Shown here: positions 2 through 7,924 of the stretch, piece by piece | Position numbering within the stretch: the first letter of the stretch is position 1 | Layout: every line of letters begins with the position of its first letter | DNA from: Clostridia bacterium | Lineage (GTDB): Bacteria; Bacillota; Clostridia; Oscillospirales; QAKW01 | Direction of reading: 5' to 3' | Assembly: GCA_017442025.1 (NCBI GenBank) | Contig: JAFSBD010000042.1 | Location: forward strand, 1 to 25,929 | DNA: 25,929 bases | Translations under genes and position numbers: made by a program | The notes under the pieces: model-generated | Seen by the model: the letters and a program-made list of their open reading frames with translations, nothing else | Database searches by the model: none | Told to the model about the DNA's origin: nothing

Positions 2-86
2 GCCCGCCTGCAGGCGGGCGGAAGGGCGGAGAAAGGGGGACGGGATGCCCTGCGCTCAGCATTTTTTCGGCTGCTGCGGGCAAAAG
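2..86. repeat. Partial GC-rich palindromic (REP-like) element at window edge
   Basis: Perfect 18-bp palindrome gcccgcctgcaggcgggc (2-19). The segment ggctgctgcgggcaaaa (69-85) resembles the reverse complement of the hairpin repeat end at ~24277-24295. Confidence 0.4.
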
Positions 87-94
87 TAAGCTGA

Positions 95-267
95 ATGAAA
101 TATTGCTACGCAATATGAAATAATCCGAACGGATTATGAAATTTTCTGCTACCGCAGAAAGTGAAATAAAATTCGTTCCTTCATATGCCTCGGGCATATT
201 TCACATTTGCGAAGCAAATATTTCATAGCGAAGCTATTTCACTCGTTCCGCAAGGAACGAATTTCAT
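95..267. repeat. Hairpin-ladder repeat 1 (4x RTGAAAT then 4x ATTTCAY, hairpins between units)
   Basis: RTGAAAT at 95, 115, 136, 161; ATTTCAY at 198, 220, 236, 261. Intervening hairpins: attgc-tac-gcaat, aatcc-gaac-ggatt, tttctgc-tacc-gcagaaa, atatgcc-tcg-ggcatat, atttgc-gaa-gcaaat, agc-gaa-gct, tcgttcc-gcaa-ggaacga. Confidence 0.9.
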
Positions 268-302
268 TGAAAAAAGCACTTGCCTTAGCAAGTGCTTTTT
301 TC
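268..302 (-). terminator. Intrinsic terminator downstream of tRNA-Ser
   Basis: gaaaaaagcacttgc-ctta-gcaagtgcttttttc, a perfect stem with T-tracts on both strands, directly after the tRNA CCA end. Confidence 0.85.
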
Positions 303-390
303 TGGCGGAGGAGAAGGGATTCGAACCCTTGTGCCTTTTGGGCAAACGGTTTTCAAGACCGCCTCGTTATGACCACTTCGATACTCCTCC
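303..390 (-). tRNA. tRNA-Ser (anticodon TGA)
   Basis: The reverse complement reads GGAGGAG...GCGGT-CTTGAAA-ACCG...long variable arm...GGGTTCGAATCCC-TTCTCCTCC-G-CCA. Acceptor stem GGAGGAG/CTCCTCC, G73 discriminator, encoded CCA, 88 nt. Confidence 0.97.
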
Positions 391-2102: not shown

Positions 2103-2238
2103 TAGCAGAGTAGATCGTTGCGGGTTAGGTGCAAGACTCGGTGTTATCTTGCCACCTTGAGTGCCCAAGGGACGGGGAGTTGTCCTTGGGACGAAAAAGG
2201 CCATGCCTTTGCCGTGCGGCGTTCGCATCCCGTTGCTG
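2103..2238 (+). ncRNA. THF (tetrahydrofolate) riboswitch aptamer, atypical
   Basis: GCAGAGTAG...GCG, TTGAGTG, P3 CCCAAGGGAC-GGGGAGTT-GTCCTTGGG, ACGAA, P4 AAAGGC-CAT-GCCTTT and GCATCCCG-TTGC match the THF family layout. It lies upstream of a folate ECF S-component. Confidence 0.85.
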
Positions 2239-4097: not shown

Positions 4098-4186
4098 AAA
4101 GAAATCTCTCGATCCGCTATGGATCGAGAGATTTTTATGTTCTACAGAGTACAAATGAATTGTACTGCTCTTATCACAATTCATTT
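4098..4186. repeat. Direct repeat copy 2
   Basis: Offset 755 bp from copy 1; loop GCTAT instead of ATAGC. Confidence 0.92.
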
Positions 4187-4194
4187 ATGTTAGG

Positions 4195-4348
4195 GCGATA
4201 TGCTTTTTTACATACCTCGCCTTGGCGAGATATGTAAAAAGCGCGATATATTTGCCATGGGCAAATGCGATATCATTTTGCAAGCAAAATGGCGATATGA
4301 TATAAACCCCGCAAGGGGTTTATATCGCTGCCCAAGCGTTGCTTGGGC
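4195..4348. repeat. Hairpin-ladder repeat 2 (4x GCGATAT, 1x ATATCGC; collapsed form)
   Basis: GCGATAT at 4195, 4243, 4267, 4292 with hairpins between; gatataaacccc-gcaa-ggggtttatatc; ATATCGC at 4322; gcccaagc-gtt-gcttgggc abutting the radC stop. Confidence 0.88.
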
Positions 4349-5040
4349 TACAACCCACGATTGAGATAACCGCTATCCTGCATAGAGAGGGCCTCGGATC
4401 CGCAGACGATGATATGGTCCAAAAGGCCGATATCCTTTTCCAGCAGCTTTTTGCGCAGCAGGCGGGTGATGTTGACATCCTGATTGGAGGGCGCAACGCC
4501 GGTGAAATGATTATGGGCCAGCACCACATAGCGGCAATCCTGCCGCACTGCCTCCTTCATCAGTAGTTCGGAATGGACCTCCACCGCATCAAGAGAGCCT
4601 TGATAGAGCAAGGTGCAATCCAGCAGGAGCTTAGTTTGATCCAAAAAGGCAGCGAAAATGCATTCATCGTTCCGCCCTAAAAAGCGGGGGATGAAATAAT
4701 CCATCATCTGGCGGCTGTCCAAAAACCGCGGGCGGTGCTCCGCGCTTTGCTCATAATAGCGGCGGCTGATATCGGGCAGCATCCGCAAAAAGAAGGCGGT
4801 ATGGGGGCCAACACCCTCTACCCGGGTCAGCTCTTCTTCCTCGGCCTCCAAGACCTCCCTCAGAGTGCCGAACTTCTCCAGCAGAGCGTGGGCGATGGGG
4901 TTGGTATCCTTTTGCAAAATGGTATAGCCCAGCAAGAGCTCCAGCACCTCATGGTCGGCAAAGCCTTCCAATCCTGCGGCGCGGTAGCGTTCCCGCAGGC
5001 GGTGGCGGTGTTTTTCGTGAATGGAACGTTCCTTAGGCAA
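4348..5040 (-). CDS. radC: RadC family (JAB/MPN domain) protein
   Basis: HRHRLRERY, DHEVLELLL, HhH region VEGVGPHTA, JAB motif AHNH..G..PS..D and LLDHII; TTG start with GAGGTG RBS. Confidence 0.9.
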   Translation of the reverse strand: MPKERSIHEKHRHRLRERYRAAGLEGFADHEVLELLLGYTILQKDTNPIAHALLEKFGTLREVLEAEEEELTRVEGVGPHTAFFLRMLPDISRRYYEQSAEHRPRFLDSRQMMDYFIPRFLGRNDECIFAAFLDQTKLLLDCTLLYQGSLDAVEVHSELLMKEAVRQDCRYVVLAHNHFTGVAPSNQDVNITRLLRKKLLEKDIGLLDHIIVCGSEALSMQDSGYLNRGL

Positions 5041-5055
5041 GATGGTTCACCTCGC

Positions 5056-5895
5056 TTAAACAAATCGAATGGTGCGGCGGATATAATAGGTGCGCCGTTG
5101 GCTTTGCATCACCCTGAGCTTGACCGAAAGGCGGCCATGGGGGGTCTGCACCTCCGCTTCGGCGTTCTTTTCGTCCAGGTTGGAAAAATCCGCCACCTTG
5201 AGTTTTTTGCCGCAGATGGGGCAGGTGATCTTTTTCAGCCGTTTATCCGCCAACGCCTTTTCGGCGGAGCGGAAAGGGGGGAAATAATCCTTGGTACTAT
5301 GCATGCTATGCCAGAGCACGCCGTTGAGCTCGGTATAGTTGCGCACACCCTCTCTGAGGTTGAGTGCGCGGGCGACCCGCGCAGTATAGATGGCATCGTT
5401 GAAGGCGTTATGGATCTGCAGGGTCGGAACAATATTTAACTGCTCCATGGCATATTCCAAAGAAAACTGACGGTTTTCATGGGCGATCTGCCCATTGAAG
5501 ATGCCCTGCAGATTGAGGCAGGGGGGAAGCCAATCTTCCTCCAGATCGTGCATCAGCAGGTTGTCCTTGAGCATCTGAATGTCATCATAGCCCCAGGAGA
5601 GCAGCAGGCAATCCTTGCCGCACCAGGCGCGAAACTCCTCGATCGCCTCTTTGAATTTCTTCTGCCCCTTGAGCATCTGCTGATCGATGCCGGTCATCTT
5701 TTTGATGCGGTGATGCAGCTTGCGGTAGAAGGTGGGGGCGATCAGCAGGTCGATGCAGTCGATGGCTTCGGCGCGCTCGTTTAATTTAACGGCACCGATC
5801 TGGATGATCTCGCCCGAAAGATATATAGGGGAAAGGACCGCCGTTTCCTTGGAGAAGGGCTGGTTCCATTCCATGTCGAAAACAATATAGTTCAT
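5056..5895 (-). CDS. DEDDh 3'-5' exonuclease (KapD/Eri1-like) with C-terminal extension
   Basis: IVFDMEWNQ (ExoI), EIIQIGAVKL, WGYDD (ExoII), HNAFNDA (ExoIII), C-terminal CPIC; AGGAG RBS before ATG 5895. Confidence 0.85.
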   Translation of the reverse strand: MNYIVFDMEWNQPFSKETAVLSPIYLSGEIIQIGAVKLNERAEAIDCIDLLIAPTFYRKLHHRIKKMTGIDQQMLKGQKKFKEAIEEFRAWCGKDCLLLSWGYDDIQMLKDNLLMHDLEEDWLPPCLNLQGIFNGQIAHENRQFSLEYAMEQLNIVPTLQIHNAFNDAIYTARVARALNLREGVRNYTELNGVLWHSMHSTKDYFPPFRSAEKALADKRLKKITCPICGKKLKVADFSNLDEKNAEAEVQTPHGRLSVKLRVMQSQRRTYYIRRTIRFV

Positions 5896-5919
5896 GAACA
5901 CTCCTGAGGTAAATATTTC

Positions 5920-6273
5920 TCATTTTGAGGTTGCTTTTTCTTTTGCAGTAGTTATGGATGCAATCAGTTTGCGTCGAATGGTTCCGCATTGCCGGGATAA
6001 TTGTTGATATTGCGTTTCCGTCAATGAGGATGTTTTGAATAATACTTCCAACCAATAATCCGTTTCGTAGCATTCTTTCAGCGCAATTTCAAGCTTATGG
6101 ATAAAATCGGCTCGGCTTTGCGCGTATTTTGCTTCATAAGCATTTGCTCCGATGGAAGAGCAGGAACGAATTACTTGGTTAATGAAAACGGAACGATTTT
6201 TAATATGATCGCATATAGCAGTCAGCTCAACGGTCAGATCTACTGCTAATTCCTTTATGGTAGGCTGGTTCAT
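5920..6273 (-). CDS. Four-helix-bundle protein (23S rRNA IVP / Avd-like family)
   Basis: QVIRSCSSIGANAYEA..AQSRADFIHKLEIALKECYETDYWL is the family signature; AAAGGA RBS. Confidence 0.92.
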   Translation of the reverse strand: MNQPTIKELAVDLTVELTAICDHIKNRSVFINQVIRSCSSIGANAYEAKYAQSRADFIHKLEIALKECYETDYWLEVLFKTSSLTETQYQQLSRQCGTIRRKLIASITTAKEKATSK

Positions 6274-6289
6274 GGGGGATGTCCTTTCG

Positions 6290-6488
6290 GCGATATATTT
6301 GCCCGAGCGGGCAAATGCGATATAAGCTTTGCTTGCGATATATACACGGTGTGTATGCGATATGATATAAATCTGCCTATTCCTCGTTTTTGAGGCAACG
6401 CCTCAAAAACATATCGCGTGTGAAGCACATATCGCGCGAAAGCTTTTTCTTTTGCATATCGCAAATCTGCAGAGCAGATTTATATCGC
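6290..6488. repeat. Hairpin-ladder repeat 3 (4x GCGATAT then 4x ATATCGC)
   Basis: GCGATAT at 6290, 6317, 6335, 6357; ATATCGC at 6411, 6429, 6456, 6482; a hairpin between each pair of neighbouring units. Confidence 0.92.
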
Positions 6489-6526
6489 TGAAATAAAATC
6501 TTTAGATGCTTAAAGATTTTATTTCA
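6489..6526. repeat. 16-bp perfect inverted repeat spanning the mgtC stop codon
   Basis: TGAAATAAAATCTTTA-gatgct-TAAAGATTTTATTTCA. Confidence 0.85.
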
Positions 6527-7206
6527 GGATGTTCATCCATAAATTTCAAAACTTCACTAAAGGGAATATTCTGCTTCATTCGCACCTGCAGGATCATATT
6601 AAGGGTATTATCGGCGCAGGTAGTGATGCGGGAGGAAACGATGGTGATGCCCAGTTCCTGTTGCTTTTCCTTTAAGATGGCGCGGATCTCGGGGGTATCC
6701 ACCAAGGTCATGCGGATCTCGCCGTTGGAATAGGCATCGTAGCCCACGTTGAAATGGTGCATCAGCAACTGAACGCCAAGGATCAGCACCGCCATAAAGA
6801 TGGCGACCCAATAGAGCCCGCTCCCGCAAGCCATACCGACCGCGGCGGTGGCCCAGATGCCTGCGGCGGTGGTGAGGCCCTTCACGGTGTTGCCGTTCTT
6901 ATAGATAACGCCCGCGCCCAAGAAGGAGATGCCGGTTACCACCTGGGCGGCGATACGGGCAGGATCAGCGCCCCGAGAGCCCACCGCATCGGCCATATCA
7001 AAGAAGGCGTATTTGGAGATAACCATAAAGAGGGCGGCCGCCCCTGCGATGATGCAGTGGGTGCGGATGCCGGCTTCTTTGGAACGCTTAGTACGCTCCA
7101 GACCGATGATGGCGCCCAGGAAGGTGGCCAGAATGATGCGCAGAAGATAGATCAGCATCGGGTGTTGAACGAAAAATTCTTTTATAATGTTTAAAACAGC
7201 AGCCAT
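6502..7206 (-). CDS. MgtC/SapB family membrane protein (canonical copy)
   Basis: GLERT, AGIRTH, DPARIAAQVVTGISFLGAG, GLTTAAGIWATAAVGMACG; C-terminal soluble ACT-like domain. Confidence 0.92.
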   Translation of the reverse strand: MAAVLNIIKEFFVQHPMLIYLLRIILATFLGAIIGLERTKRSKEAGIRTHCIIAGAAALFMVISKYAFFDMADAVGSRGADPARIAAQVVTGISFLGAGVIYKNGNTVKGLTTAAGIWATAAVGMACGSGLYWVAIFMAVLILGVQLLMHHFNVGYDAYSNGEIRMTLVDTPEIRAILKEKQQELGITIVSSRITTCADNTLNMILQVRMKQNIPFSEVLKFMDEHPEIKSLSI

Positions 7207-7219
7207 GATAATGCTCCTT

Positions 7220-7924
7220 TTATATTGATATTTCGGTGATTTCAGGGTGGGCCTTCAAGAAATGATAAACATCCTCGAAGGATATGCTTCGGGGGGTGCG
7301 GATCTGGAGATAGATGGAGACCGAACCGTCGGCGCGGGTGCGGCCGTAGCGGGCGGAGACCACCTGGATCTGATATTCCTCTTTTTTCTCCTTCAGCATC
7401 CTGCGAAGCGCGGGAGTGTTTTGCACCTTCAGATAAAGAACGCGGATGGGCGCAATATAAACATGGTTAAAGGCGATCAACCGCGGGATCAAAAGGAAGA
7501 GCAGGGTGGTCAAAATTCCCAACAGCAAAAGTCCGCTCCCGCAGGCCATGCCGATGGCGGCGGTGGCCCAGATGCCTGCGGCGGTGGTCAGGCCTGAAAC
7601 GGTATCCTGATCCACCTTATTGAAGATGATCCCCGCGCCCAGAAAACCCGAGCCGTCGATAATGTAGCAGGCGATCACCGTTGGGTCAAAGCCCTGCAGC
7701 CCCGCGCCCTTGGCAAGATCAAAAAAGGCGTATTTGGAAAGGATCATAAAGAGCGCCGCGCCGCCCGCCAGAATGGCGTGGGTGCGCAATCCTGCGTGCT
7801 TGGAGCGAAAAGAACGCTCCATTCCCAAGAATGCACCGCATAAAACGGCGATCAGCAAGCGAAAGGAGTAGTCTACCTGCGGTAAGGTAAGAAATCCTTG
7901 CAATATTTCATTCAAGCGCGCCAC
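7220..7924 (-). CDS. MgtC/SapB family membrane protein (divergent paralog)
   Basis: GMERS, AGLRTH, DPTVIACYIIDGSGFLGAG, GLTTAAGIWATAAIGMACG; GTG start with AAAGGAG RBS. Confidence 0.9.
   Translation of the reverse strand: MARLNEILQGFLTLPQVDYSFRLLIAVLCGAFLGMERSFRSKHAGLRTHAILAGGAALFMILSKYAFFDLAKGAGLQGFDPTVIACYIIDGSGFLGAGIIFNKVDQDTVSGLTTAAGIWATAAIGMACGSGLLLLGILTTLLFLLIPRLIAFNHVYIAPIRVLYLKVQNTPALRRMLKEKKEEYQIQVVSARYGRTRADGSVSIYLQIRTPRSISFEDVYHFLKAHPEITEISI

Follow-up and report, generated by a model that had tools for sequence, protein, structure and literature searches.

A hairpin-ladder cassette carrying a PF05635 four-helix-bundle gene between mgtC and an exonuclease gene in a Clostridia genome, and its relatives in gut Clostridia

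Results

The mgtC-exonuclease locus and its ladder

The window analyzed in this study is a 25,929 nt stretch of a Clostridia bacterium genome (assembly GCA_017442025.1, contig JAFSBD010000042.1). At the locus of interest three genes are read on the minus strand: mgtC (6502-7206), a gene for a four-helix-bundle protein and an RNase_T exonuclease gene. Directly 5' of the four-helix-bundle gene, which belongs to PF05635/TIGR02436, the stretch 6290-6488 consists of four GCGATAT and four ATATCGC words with a hairpin in every gap, and all of the words and hairpins of the original prediction could be located there. On the plus strand the GCGATAT words start at 6290, 6317, 6335 and 6357 and the ATATCGC words at 6411, 6429, 6456 and 6482; the gene-sense strand also reads four GCGATAT followed by four ATATCGC. 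Following the mgtC stop codon, the order on this strand is hairpin A, the four GCGATAT words with hairpins B, C and D between them, hairpin E with a short centre, and the four ATATCGC words with hairpins F, G and H between them (Table 1).

Table 1. Coordinates of the features described in the window
Feature	Position	Strand	Description
Whole inserted cassette	5896-6501	-	606 bp; hairpin A 3' arm, ladder, RBS, four-helix-bundle gene, 24-nt tail
Four-helix-bundle gene	5920-6273	-	117 aa; PF05635 23S_rRNA_IVP / TIGR02436; Avd-like fold
Second half-ladder	6290-6363	-	4x ATATCGC; hairpins F 6342-6356, G 6324-6334, H 6297-6316; ends 16 nt before start codon
Ladder centre	6364-6410	-	hairpin E 6386-6410 (11 bp) and 13-nt B-arm copy with partial word 6364-6376
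First half-ladder (gene-sense)	6411-6488	-	4x GCGATAT; hairpins B 6463-6481, C 6436-6455, D 6418-6428
Hairpin A	6488-6527	-	17-nt arms, 100% complementary; 5' arm is the last mgtC codons; stop codon straddles loop and 3' arm
Second, gene-less GCGATAT ladder	4195-4328	+	4 words and 1 inverted, collapsed form; between XRE gene and radC
TGAAAT-type 4+4 ladder	82-302		behind tRNA-Ser; halves match RF01706 on opposite strands

Hairpin A is an additional 17-bp hairpin (arms 6488-6504 and 6511-6527) which encloses the mgtC stop codon, its 3' arm being the reverse complement of the last mgtC codons. Hairpin B, of the AAATC..GATTT type, is common to all ladder types; the 13-nt copy of its arm in the ladder centre can pair with 6474-6486 (100% complementary), and in other ladders this central copy co-varies with hairpin B. 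The exact word GCGATAT occurs 16 times in the window, 8 of these within 6290-6488, compared with 5.3 ± 2.2 occurrences in shuffled sequences, and none of 100 shuffles reached 16. Folding of the ladder compared with shuffles gave z values of -6.6 and -7.2 for the two strands, and in the minimum-energy structure of both strands the heptamers were zipped, as had been anticipated for the left and right arrays. The word counts, the folding z-scores and the recurrence of the ladder in about 60 species rule out a chance origin.

The ribosome binding site AAAGGA (6282-6287) precedes an ATG at 6273 and does lie just after the last heptamer as originally described, its first base being the third nucleotide after it. 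A scan of the gene strand for sigma70-like promoters found none in or before the window ladder, which is therefore probably part of the mgtC-gene-exonuclease operon transcript.

The four-helix-bundle protein

The encoded protein is a member of PF05635 (E 4.6e-21, 75.5 bits, curated cut-off 33.8) and of TIGR02436 in NCBIfam (E 9.7e-24, 83.7 bits, cut-off 24), with 2RLD (BT_0352) as its closest PDB match (E 4.8e-22, 42% identity). An AlphaFold2 model (pLDDT 95.8) placed helices at residues 6-21, 28-48, 54-80 and 86-115, giving an up-down four-helix bundle like that of solved members of the family. Foldseek matched the window protein to 2RLD (TM 0.83-0.90), 2GSC (Xcc0516, TM up to 0.88) and the Avd structure 4DWL (TM 0.80-0.87), each of which is present as five chains (A-E) among the structure matches, and by analogy the window protein probably forms a pentameric ring. 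Residues N32, Q33, R36, S40, N44, E47, Y50, D56, K60, E67 and E70 make up an invariant polar face. Clade-specific residues gather at one end of the bundle, at positions 19-31 and 79-83, and are candidate specificity residues. The paralogues of this protein within its own genome are only 47-58% identical to it.

Insertion of the cassette

The sister genome G028 (89% nucleotide identity) does not contain positions 5896-6501, and its exonuclease start and mgtC stop are 1 nt apart; the flanks compared were 4348-5895 and 6502-7924 of the window, at 89% identity. A similarly compact mgtC-exonuclease junction was found in G024, G026, G009, G019 and others. Because the site is empty in the sister genome and in several other species of the genus, the ladder and gene are a discrete insert, and 5896-6501 is one inserted cassette, which bears out the original prediction of a small insertion cassette at this junction. 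The 24-nt tail of the cassette supplies a new AGGAG for the exonuclease gene, the true start of which is probably the ATG at 5895.

Gene-less remnants consisting of hairpin A, one GCGATAT word and hairpin B are present at the same junction in three further genomes (G025, G004 and G029). Hairpin B of these remnants equals that of the window over its first 17 nt and, in G029, over all 19 nt. The mgtC ends of the three genomes carry synonymous differences, and each is matched by its own hairpin A 3' arm; the same hairpin A construction is found at the end of a rumA-like gene in other species. The cassette may predate these species and have been lost several times, or it may have entered repeatedly at the same site, and both histories fit. 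Contigs from goat and bovine gut span the exonuclease gene, the four-helix-bundle gene, the ladder and mgtC; no joint which skips the cassette, and so no within-species empty allele, was seen among them. Among RNA runs none was found to contain the locus. Nor was any target-site duplication recognized at the filled and empty sites compared (this cassette and two solo ladders described below), where the insertions lie in or at terminator hairpins.

Ladders and word types across related genes

A one-genome-per-species search yielded 80 loci, all of them from gut or rumen Clostridia MAGs. When a word-blind ladder detector was applied to 71 related genes from other species (drawn from loci L018-L097), a ladder was found no more than 420 nt upstream of 59, compared with 12 of 1811 random tiles of the window's genome, so the enrichment of ladders beside four-helix-bundle genes on which the predicted module depended is present. 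Within the clade of at least 64% identity to the window protein, nearly every locus has 3-4 + 3-4 GCGATAT words in the 350 nt upstream of the gene, with hardly any downstream. Four relatives have the ladder immediately 5' of a gene whose product shares 62-72% identity with the window protein, and in none of the four is mgtC or the exonuclease gene nearby. Among close orthologues (63-77% identity) this ladder recurs in no fewer than 10 distinct genomic settings. The GCGATAT module lies behind a rumA-like methyltransferase gene, whose last codons form hairpin A, in at least 22 cases and in at least 9 other contexts. In all cases the gene upstream of the module is co-oriented, and the last word of the module falls 13-61 nt before the start codon.

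Loci of lower identity use other words, namely ATGAATTG/CAATTCAT, TGAAAT/ATTTCA (Gut-1, see below) and GTGATAT, while 20 further paralogues add GCTAAAT, CGTGAAG, CATATCATC, GTTATGA, GTATGTAAT, CGTGATGC and ACATCATT; the further word types upstream of such other paralogues number eight. In a tree of 87 proteins the GCGATAT, ATGAATTG, TGAAAT and GTGATAT clades were each supported at 100/95 or better, and word type tracks protein clade. Physical linkage alone would make word type follow protein clade. In several ladder types, TGAAAT, GTGATAT, CGTGAAG and CGTGATGC among them, a canonical TTGAAA/TTTACA-17-TATAAT promoter follows, its -35 box directly adjoining the last word; this sigma70-like promoter stands between ladder and gene, and therefore the ladder lies outside the gene's own mRNA there. 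In G039, L049 and L065 a duplicated half-ladder stands on either side of the gene, and complementary word arrays flank the ORF in G039, L060 and L076, whereas in the window both arrays are upstream.

Selection on the hairpins and polarity of the half-ladders

Words are invariant within a ladder while the hairpin sequences turn over freely and stay paired. The 247 spacers compared, 187 of them distinct, were Watson-Crick at 86.5% of their symmetric positions (27.5% in shuffles), and an alignment of 27 homologous right halves contained compensatory changes in 10 of 11 predicted (alifold) pairs. The stem covariation which the original prediction called for is thus found, and it points to selection acting on the folding of the spacers and not on the sequence of the hairpins.

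On the strand which reads hairpin-ATATCGC, G-T/U wobbles outnumber A-C wobbles 60:21 and GNA triloops are dominant; triloops of this kind with a C:G closing pair are characteristic of stable DNA hairpins. In gene-sense reading the gene-proximal half contains 36 G-T/U and 10 A-C wobbles with GAA/AAA/GGA triloops closed by C:G, and the far half has 11 G-T/U and 24 A-C wobbles with the complementary loops. From this mirrored wobble and loop polarity, each half looks functional on the strand reading hairpin-ATATCGC, which is opposite to the orientation of Gut-1 in Rfam. As a rule there are 4 or 5 words per half, the two halves frequently have unequal numbers of words (only 26 of 56 are 4+4) and word variants are mirror-symmetric between the halves. 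The mirrored polarity, the mirror-symmetric variants and the unequal copy numbers lead us to think that the half-ladder is the conserved object. We also considered the zipped four-way-junction ladder as the conserved object, a view which lone half-ladders, unequal halves, mirror-symmetric variants and mirrored wobble polarity do not support.

Gene-less ladders and Gut-1

The genome containing the window (G000; 1.69 Mb in 347 contigs, about 80% complete) has about 19 ladder loci, of which about 18 are gene-less. All of them consist of words followed by inverted words, and the hairpin modules are recognizably homologous across the loci. Ladders are thus not specific to the window gene, as is also evident from the second GCGATAT ladder in the window (Table 1), which is found at the same place in G028 and gave only a weak match to the Rfam Gut-1 model (25.2 bits at 4265-4330). 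Two loci are insertion-polymorphic, with a ladder in the window's genome and none in G028: at one the ladder is inside the loop of the terminator hairpin of the upstream gene, and at the other it replaces the 5' arm of the terminator. Gene-less ladders are dispersed, insertion-polymorphic repeats. Half-ladders persist alone in some loci, and ladders also bracket unrelated genes behind rumA (L043, L052).

Gut-1 (RF01706) entered the literature as an orphan non-coding RNA whose organism was unknown (PMC2864571). The TGAAAT-type ladder in the window matched RF01706 with 63.1 bits at 193-269 on the minus strand and 42.1 bits at 82-147 on the plus strand, and since its two halves match on opposite strands, Gut-1 is one half of a TGAAAT-type ladder. 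The window ladder is laid out like Gut-1, each unit having four copies of an invariant heptamer in alternation with variable hairpins; positions 6290-6488 gave no match to the Gut-1 covariance model even at E<=5 (gathering score 50 bits). The original statement that the element was not recognized as a named system therefore stands only in part, in that the TGAAAT-type half is Rfam Gut-1 and the window ladder is its sister, while we found no paper which pairs Gut-1 with the protein. The 61 related genomes together gave 525 Gut-1 matches, with a maximum of 43 in one genome.

Co-occurrence with the gene family and candidate partners

Across the same 61 genomes Gut-1-type ladders and PF05635 genes occur together (counts 37/4/3/17, Fisher 1e-8, rho 0.84), and with one genome from each of 24 families the correlation of Gut-1 and PF05635 counts was rho 0.82. 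Ladders were absent from 17 of the 20 genomes without the PF05635 family. Solo ladders far exceed genes in number (525 Gut-1 compared with 106 PF05635 matches). In the window's genome the abundant solo types GCGATAT, TGAAAT and TCGATAT have resident genes of matching or probably matching type. A strict type-specific tie between GCGATAT ladders and genes of the GCGATAT clade was rejected, as it fails in G038, G028, G006, G054 and G023. Some of the GCGATAT ladders without a cognate gene are near-identical recent copies (G038 has 28 pattern hits), and G023 (97% completeness) gave no PF05635 match at all despite its GCGATAT ladders. The predicted dependence between gene and ladder is therefore upheld as a strong enrichment, but not as an obligate association, with gene-less ladders common and GCGATAT ladders in G038, G028 and G023 lacking a gene of that clade.

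No rRNA was found in a search of the window. A search of the whole genome for a reverse transcriptase (PF00078) gave no match and its sole Y1_Tnp match (C336, 29.7 bits) was weak and on another contig with no ladder nearby, in agreement with the earlier observation that the window has no rRNA, reverse transcriptase or transposase. Reverse transcriptase genes are present in only 11 of the 61 relatives and do not follow the ladders, which together with their absence from the window's genome rules out a DGR-like mobilization. A RAYT or IS200-type transposase partner was likewise ruled out, given the single weak, ladder-free gene and a Y1_Tnp distribution that does not follow the ladders.

The wider PF05635 family

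When 25 canonical PF05635 genes, drawn from 25 other families in the phylum, were put through the strict ladder detector, no hairpin ladder was identified. Twelve of the 25 genes were flanked by mirrored word arrays, in which a short word is repeated upstream and its reverse complement downstream without hairpins, compared with 47 of 3697 control tiles. Two of the 25 lie inside 23S rRNA genes and are classical intervening sequences; one of these (L110) counts among the 12, and in the other (L109) mirrored arrays could be made out only by eye. A looser test for any repeated 6-mer was uninformative since 46% of control windows passed it. Given the mirrored arrays around canonical members, the hairpin ladder is a lineage-specific elaboration of a family-wide rule by which each gene has its own word.

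Discussion

At the window locus a discrete insert joins a ladder to a PF05635 gene; ladder and gene are linked across relatives, the word matches the protein clade, the hairpins covary, and related ladders are dispersed and co-occur with the gene family. We propose that the cassette is a unit similar to an rRNA intervening sequence (IVS), whose Avd-like ring reads its own words in single-stranded form and acts on its own ladder and on gene-less ladders, a reading which in our judgment has about an even chance of being correct. The cis element is an array with mirror symmetry, in which freely varying small hairpins separate 4-5 + 4-5 copies of a word of 7-9 nt particular to the protein clade; the hairpins would act as spacers to keep the words unpaired and exposed. 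The proposal is drawn from the analogy with Avd in the DGR particle, where all five protomers grip one RNA hairpin and flipped-out bases lie in the crevices between protomers (10.1101/2023.10.23.563531). About one word per crevice in a ring that is probably a pentamer would make one half-ladder fit one ring. We infer direct binding, a single-stranded ligand, the stoichiometry of the oligomer and any role in spread; the ligand may be RNA or single-stranded DNA, both of which fit. At the window locus binding would most simply feed back on expression of the gene or on processing of its transcript. The same protein would act on gene-less ladders which bear its word, and their spread or retention would depend on the protein as that of REP sequences does on RAYT. 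To our knowledge a 117-aa helical bundle has no catalytic activity, and therefore the window protein could not cut or join DNA by itself. Also speaking against the reading are the GCGATAT ladders of genomes where a gene of that clade was not found, the word types with a promoter between ladder and gene, and the fact that physical linkage by itself would produce the match of word and clade.

An RNA-level role for the ladder, as a leader or intercistronic processing element similar to the stem of the 23S IVS, would not require the protein to read the words. Cleavage sites of the RNase III type would be supplied by the paired arrays and hairpins, which would also shield the 3' end of the upstream message and release a translatable mRNA, and gene-less ladders would be decayed cassettes. 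The zipped fold of both strands of the window ladder fits such a role, as do the co-oriented upstream gene in all cases, the lack of a promoter in or before the window ladder, and hairpin A, which closes over the upstream stop codon and is kept by compensatory change; the family also includes classical IVS copies whose complementary word arrays form the excised stem. We nevertheless consider this explanation unlikely, since it leaves unexplained why 8-10 identical words per ladder change in concert between protein clades. In addition, half-ladders persist alone, the two halves mirror each other in the polarity of their wobbles and loops, which is not uniform on the sense strand, many types place the ladder between a terminator and the gene's own promoter, and the solo ladders are fresh insertions rather than decayed cassettes. 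That same position beside a promoter, where in types such as TGAAAT, GTGATAT, CGTGAAG and CGTGATGC the -35 box adjoins the last word, would suit a protein that is a transcription factor, with the words as its double-stranded DNA operators and the ladder as an autoregulatory operator array. There is no promoter near the window ladder, the known relative Avd binds structured RNA and not duplex operators, and such operators need no hairpins, yet the spacers are strongly selected to fold and have strand-specific wobble; we regard an operator function as very improbable.

It is also conceivable that the ladders are autonomous, selfish repeats of the REP or MITE kind, moved by host functions and also serving as attC-like landing or recombination sites, and that the genes are passengers which repeatedly end up beside them, with no recognition of the words. 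Such repeats would account for the great excess of solo ladders over genes, for their polymorphic insertion in terminator hairpins, for the bracketing of other genes behind rumA, for half-ladders on both sides of the gene in three relatives and for genomes with GCGATAT ladders and no cognate gene. They would not be expected to show a single word type for each protein clade across about 12 types, nor to be nearly absent where the gene family is absent (17 of 20 such genomes have none), nor would mirrored arrays be expected around canonical members in other families and in rRNA, and this origin of the ladders seems to us distinctly unlikely. Recognition of the words by the ring remains the reading which we prefer.

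Among known systems the 23S rRNA IVS with its S23p/PF05635 gene is related through the same protein family, through a gene tied to complementary arrays of short words able to form a long stem and through its character as a small, insert-like unit without a recombinase. The window cassette differs in lying outside an rRNA gene, in having both arrays upstream of the gene rather than flanking it, in the hairpins which part its words and in its dispersed gene-less copies. Gut-1 shares an invariant 7-nt word followed by a variable hairpin and the word again, a first hairpin of the AAATCCC..GGGATTT type and an occurrence in gut Clostridia. Unlike Gut-1 the window ladder uses GCGAUAU and not UGAAAU and falls below the threshold of the model; further, the element is seen here as half of a mirror-symmetric, multicopy structure linked to a protein gene, with a wobble polarity favoring the other strand than the one read by the Rfam model. 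REP/BIME and REPIN-RAYT systems of Proteobacteria are short structured intergenic repeats present in tens of copies, often at gene ends or terminators, and in REPIN-RAYT one cognate gene is itself flanked by the repeat, whose type matches the protein clade. Dispersed structured repeats, a cognate gene beside the repeat and agreement of repeat type with protein clade are common to both, but the window protein is a 117-aa helical bundle and not a Y1 HUH transposase, and the repeat unit is a word with a variable hairpin and not one conserved palindrome. Avd of DGR (4DWL; particle 8UB7) has the same fold and forms a pentameric ring which binds structured nucleic acid with bases held between protomers, whereas the window's genome has no reverse transcriptase and no template or variable repeat is present. 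The resemblance to integron cassettes and attC sites rests on the ladder-bracketed cassettes behind rumA.

Our search of the literature on the word, on Gut-1 and on the protein family found no description of the gene-ladder pairing; Gut-1 and the protein family were both already known, and what is new, as far as we found, is the link between them. Also new here are the empty site and remnants at the locus, the mirrored polarity, the quantitative co-occurrence, the insertion into terminator hairpins and the negative tests for reverse transcriptase and RAYT.

The cassette belongs to a large unpublished family in gut Clostridia in which each gene has its own repeated short word. The PF05635 "23S rRNA intervening-sequence protein" family is widespread, with Avd as its only studied member, and this family, the orphan Gut-1 motif and the origin of rRNA intervening sequences have been unexplained for 15-30 years. 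One rule, that each gene carries arrays of its own short word, joins all three, and through it both the orphan motif and a protein family without an assigned function gain a partner that can be tested. In practice ladders also cause breaks in metagenome assemblies and land in terminators and operons, and one can readily take them for regulatory RNAs or operators. More broadly, and only tentatively, PF05635 proteins could be sequence-specific readers of a whole class of short-word arrays, and may also mobilize or maintain them. If this is true, Gut-1 would belong to the class together with related ladders, the stems of intervening sequences in rRNA and the plain heptamer arrays around canonical members of the family, each half-ladder would wrap a single pentameric ring in which every crevice between protomers takes up one word, and protein and array together would be a new kind of selfish or domesticated element without a conventional recombinase.

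Altered gene copies and the exonuclease gene start

The locations of most features described here are presented in the table below. A copy of the four-helix-bundle gene from the clade whose ladders use the word GCGATAT was found in a relative to be interrupted by a stop at a codon which specifies Arg elsewhere in this clade and which is among the clade-specific residues. In another relative (locus L016) codon 47 of the gene was directly joined to the last ladder hairpin at a common GCAAAATAT microhomology; this locus is a ladder with a dead gene remaining. Upstream of two canonical PF05635 members (L145, G054:C21; L153, G031:C35) we observed plain tandem heptamers AATGCAG/AATGCAA in about 6 copies extending into the RBS, and no hairpins were present in either array.

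Although the ORF list places the start of the exonuclease gene at the upstream GTG at window position 5901, the start is probably the ATG at 5895 (region 5893-5901), which is kept in relatives. The AGGAG for this gene comes from the cassette.

Features located in the window, its genome (G000) and related genomes
Feature	Location	Remarks
TGAAAT/ATTTCA ladder, 4+4 words	window 82-302	directly behind tRNA-Ser
tRNA-Ser	window 306-390	minus strand
THF riboswitch aptamer	window 2104-2237	57.9 bits
Y1 transposase homologue, RAYT-like	L001 (G000:C336:9049-9465)	single-copy; HLH and YYDH motifs
MITE, 280 nt, distinct from ladder	L160:1489-1767 (G000:C25)	adjoins a ladder
GCGATAT-clade gene	L071:3001-3333	behind mutS2; in-frame stop, codon 27
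Four-helix-bundle gene, 5'-truncated	L016 (G009:C29:8610-8974)	
Two gene copies, divergent	L040:1100-1530	inverted half-ladder in between

Other ladders and repeats

The two halves of the ladder at the tRNA gene matched Rfam Gut-1, each on the strand opposite to the other, and no four-helix-bundle gene adjoined it. Compared with the Rfam consensus, the riboswitch aptamer of the window contains an insertion of 32 nt. The surroundings of the Y1 transposase homologue contained no ladder and no other obvious repeat.

The MITE has terminal inverted repeats of approximately 26 nt with a TA duplication, and dozens of copies with 85-92% identity were found in all searched genomes of the genus. Many gene-less ladders shared a terminator-like hairpin of the type AAATCTCTC..GAGAGATTT at one of their ends, in the position expected for the gene; it was observed at window 4100-4135 and at solo ladders of G000 on contigs C103, C271, C25, C159 and C332. 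This hairpin may be a component of the solo ladder element.
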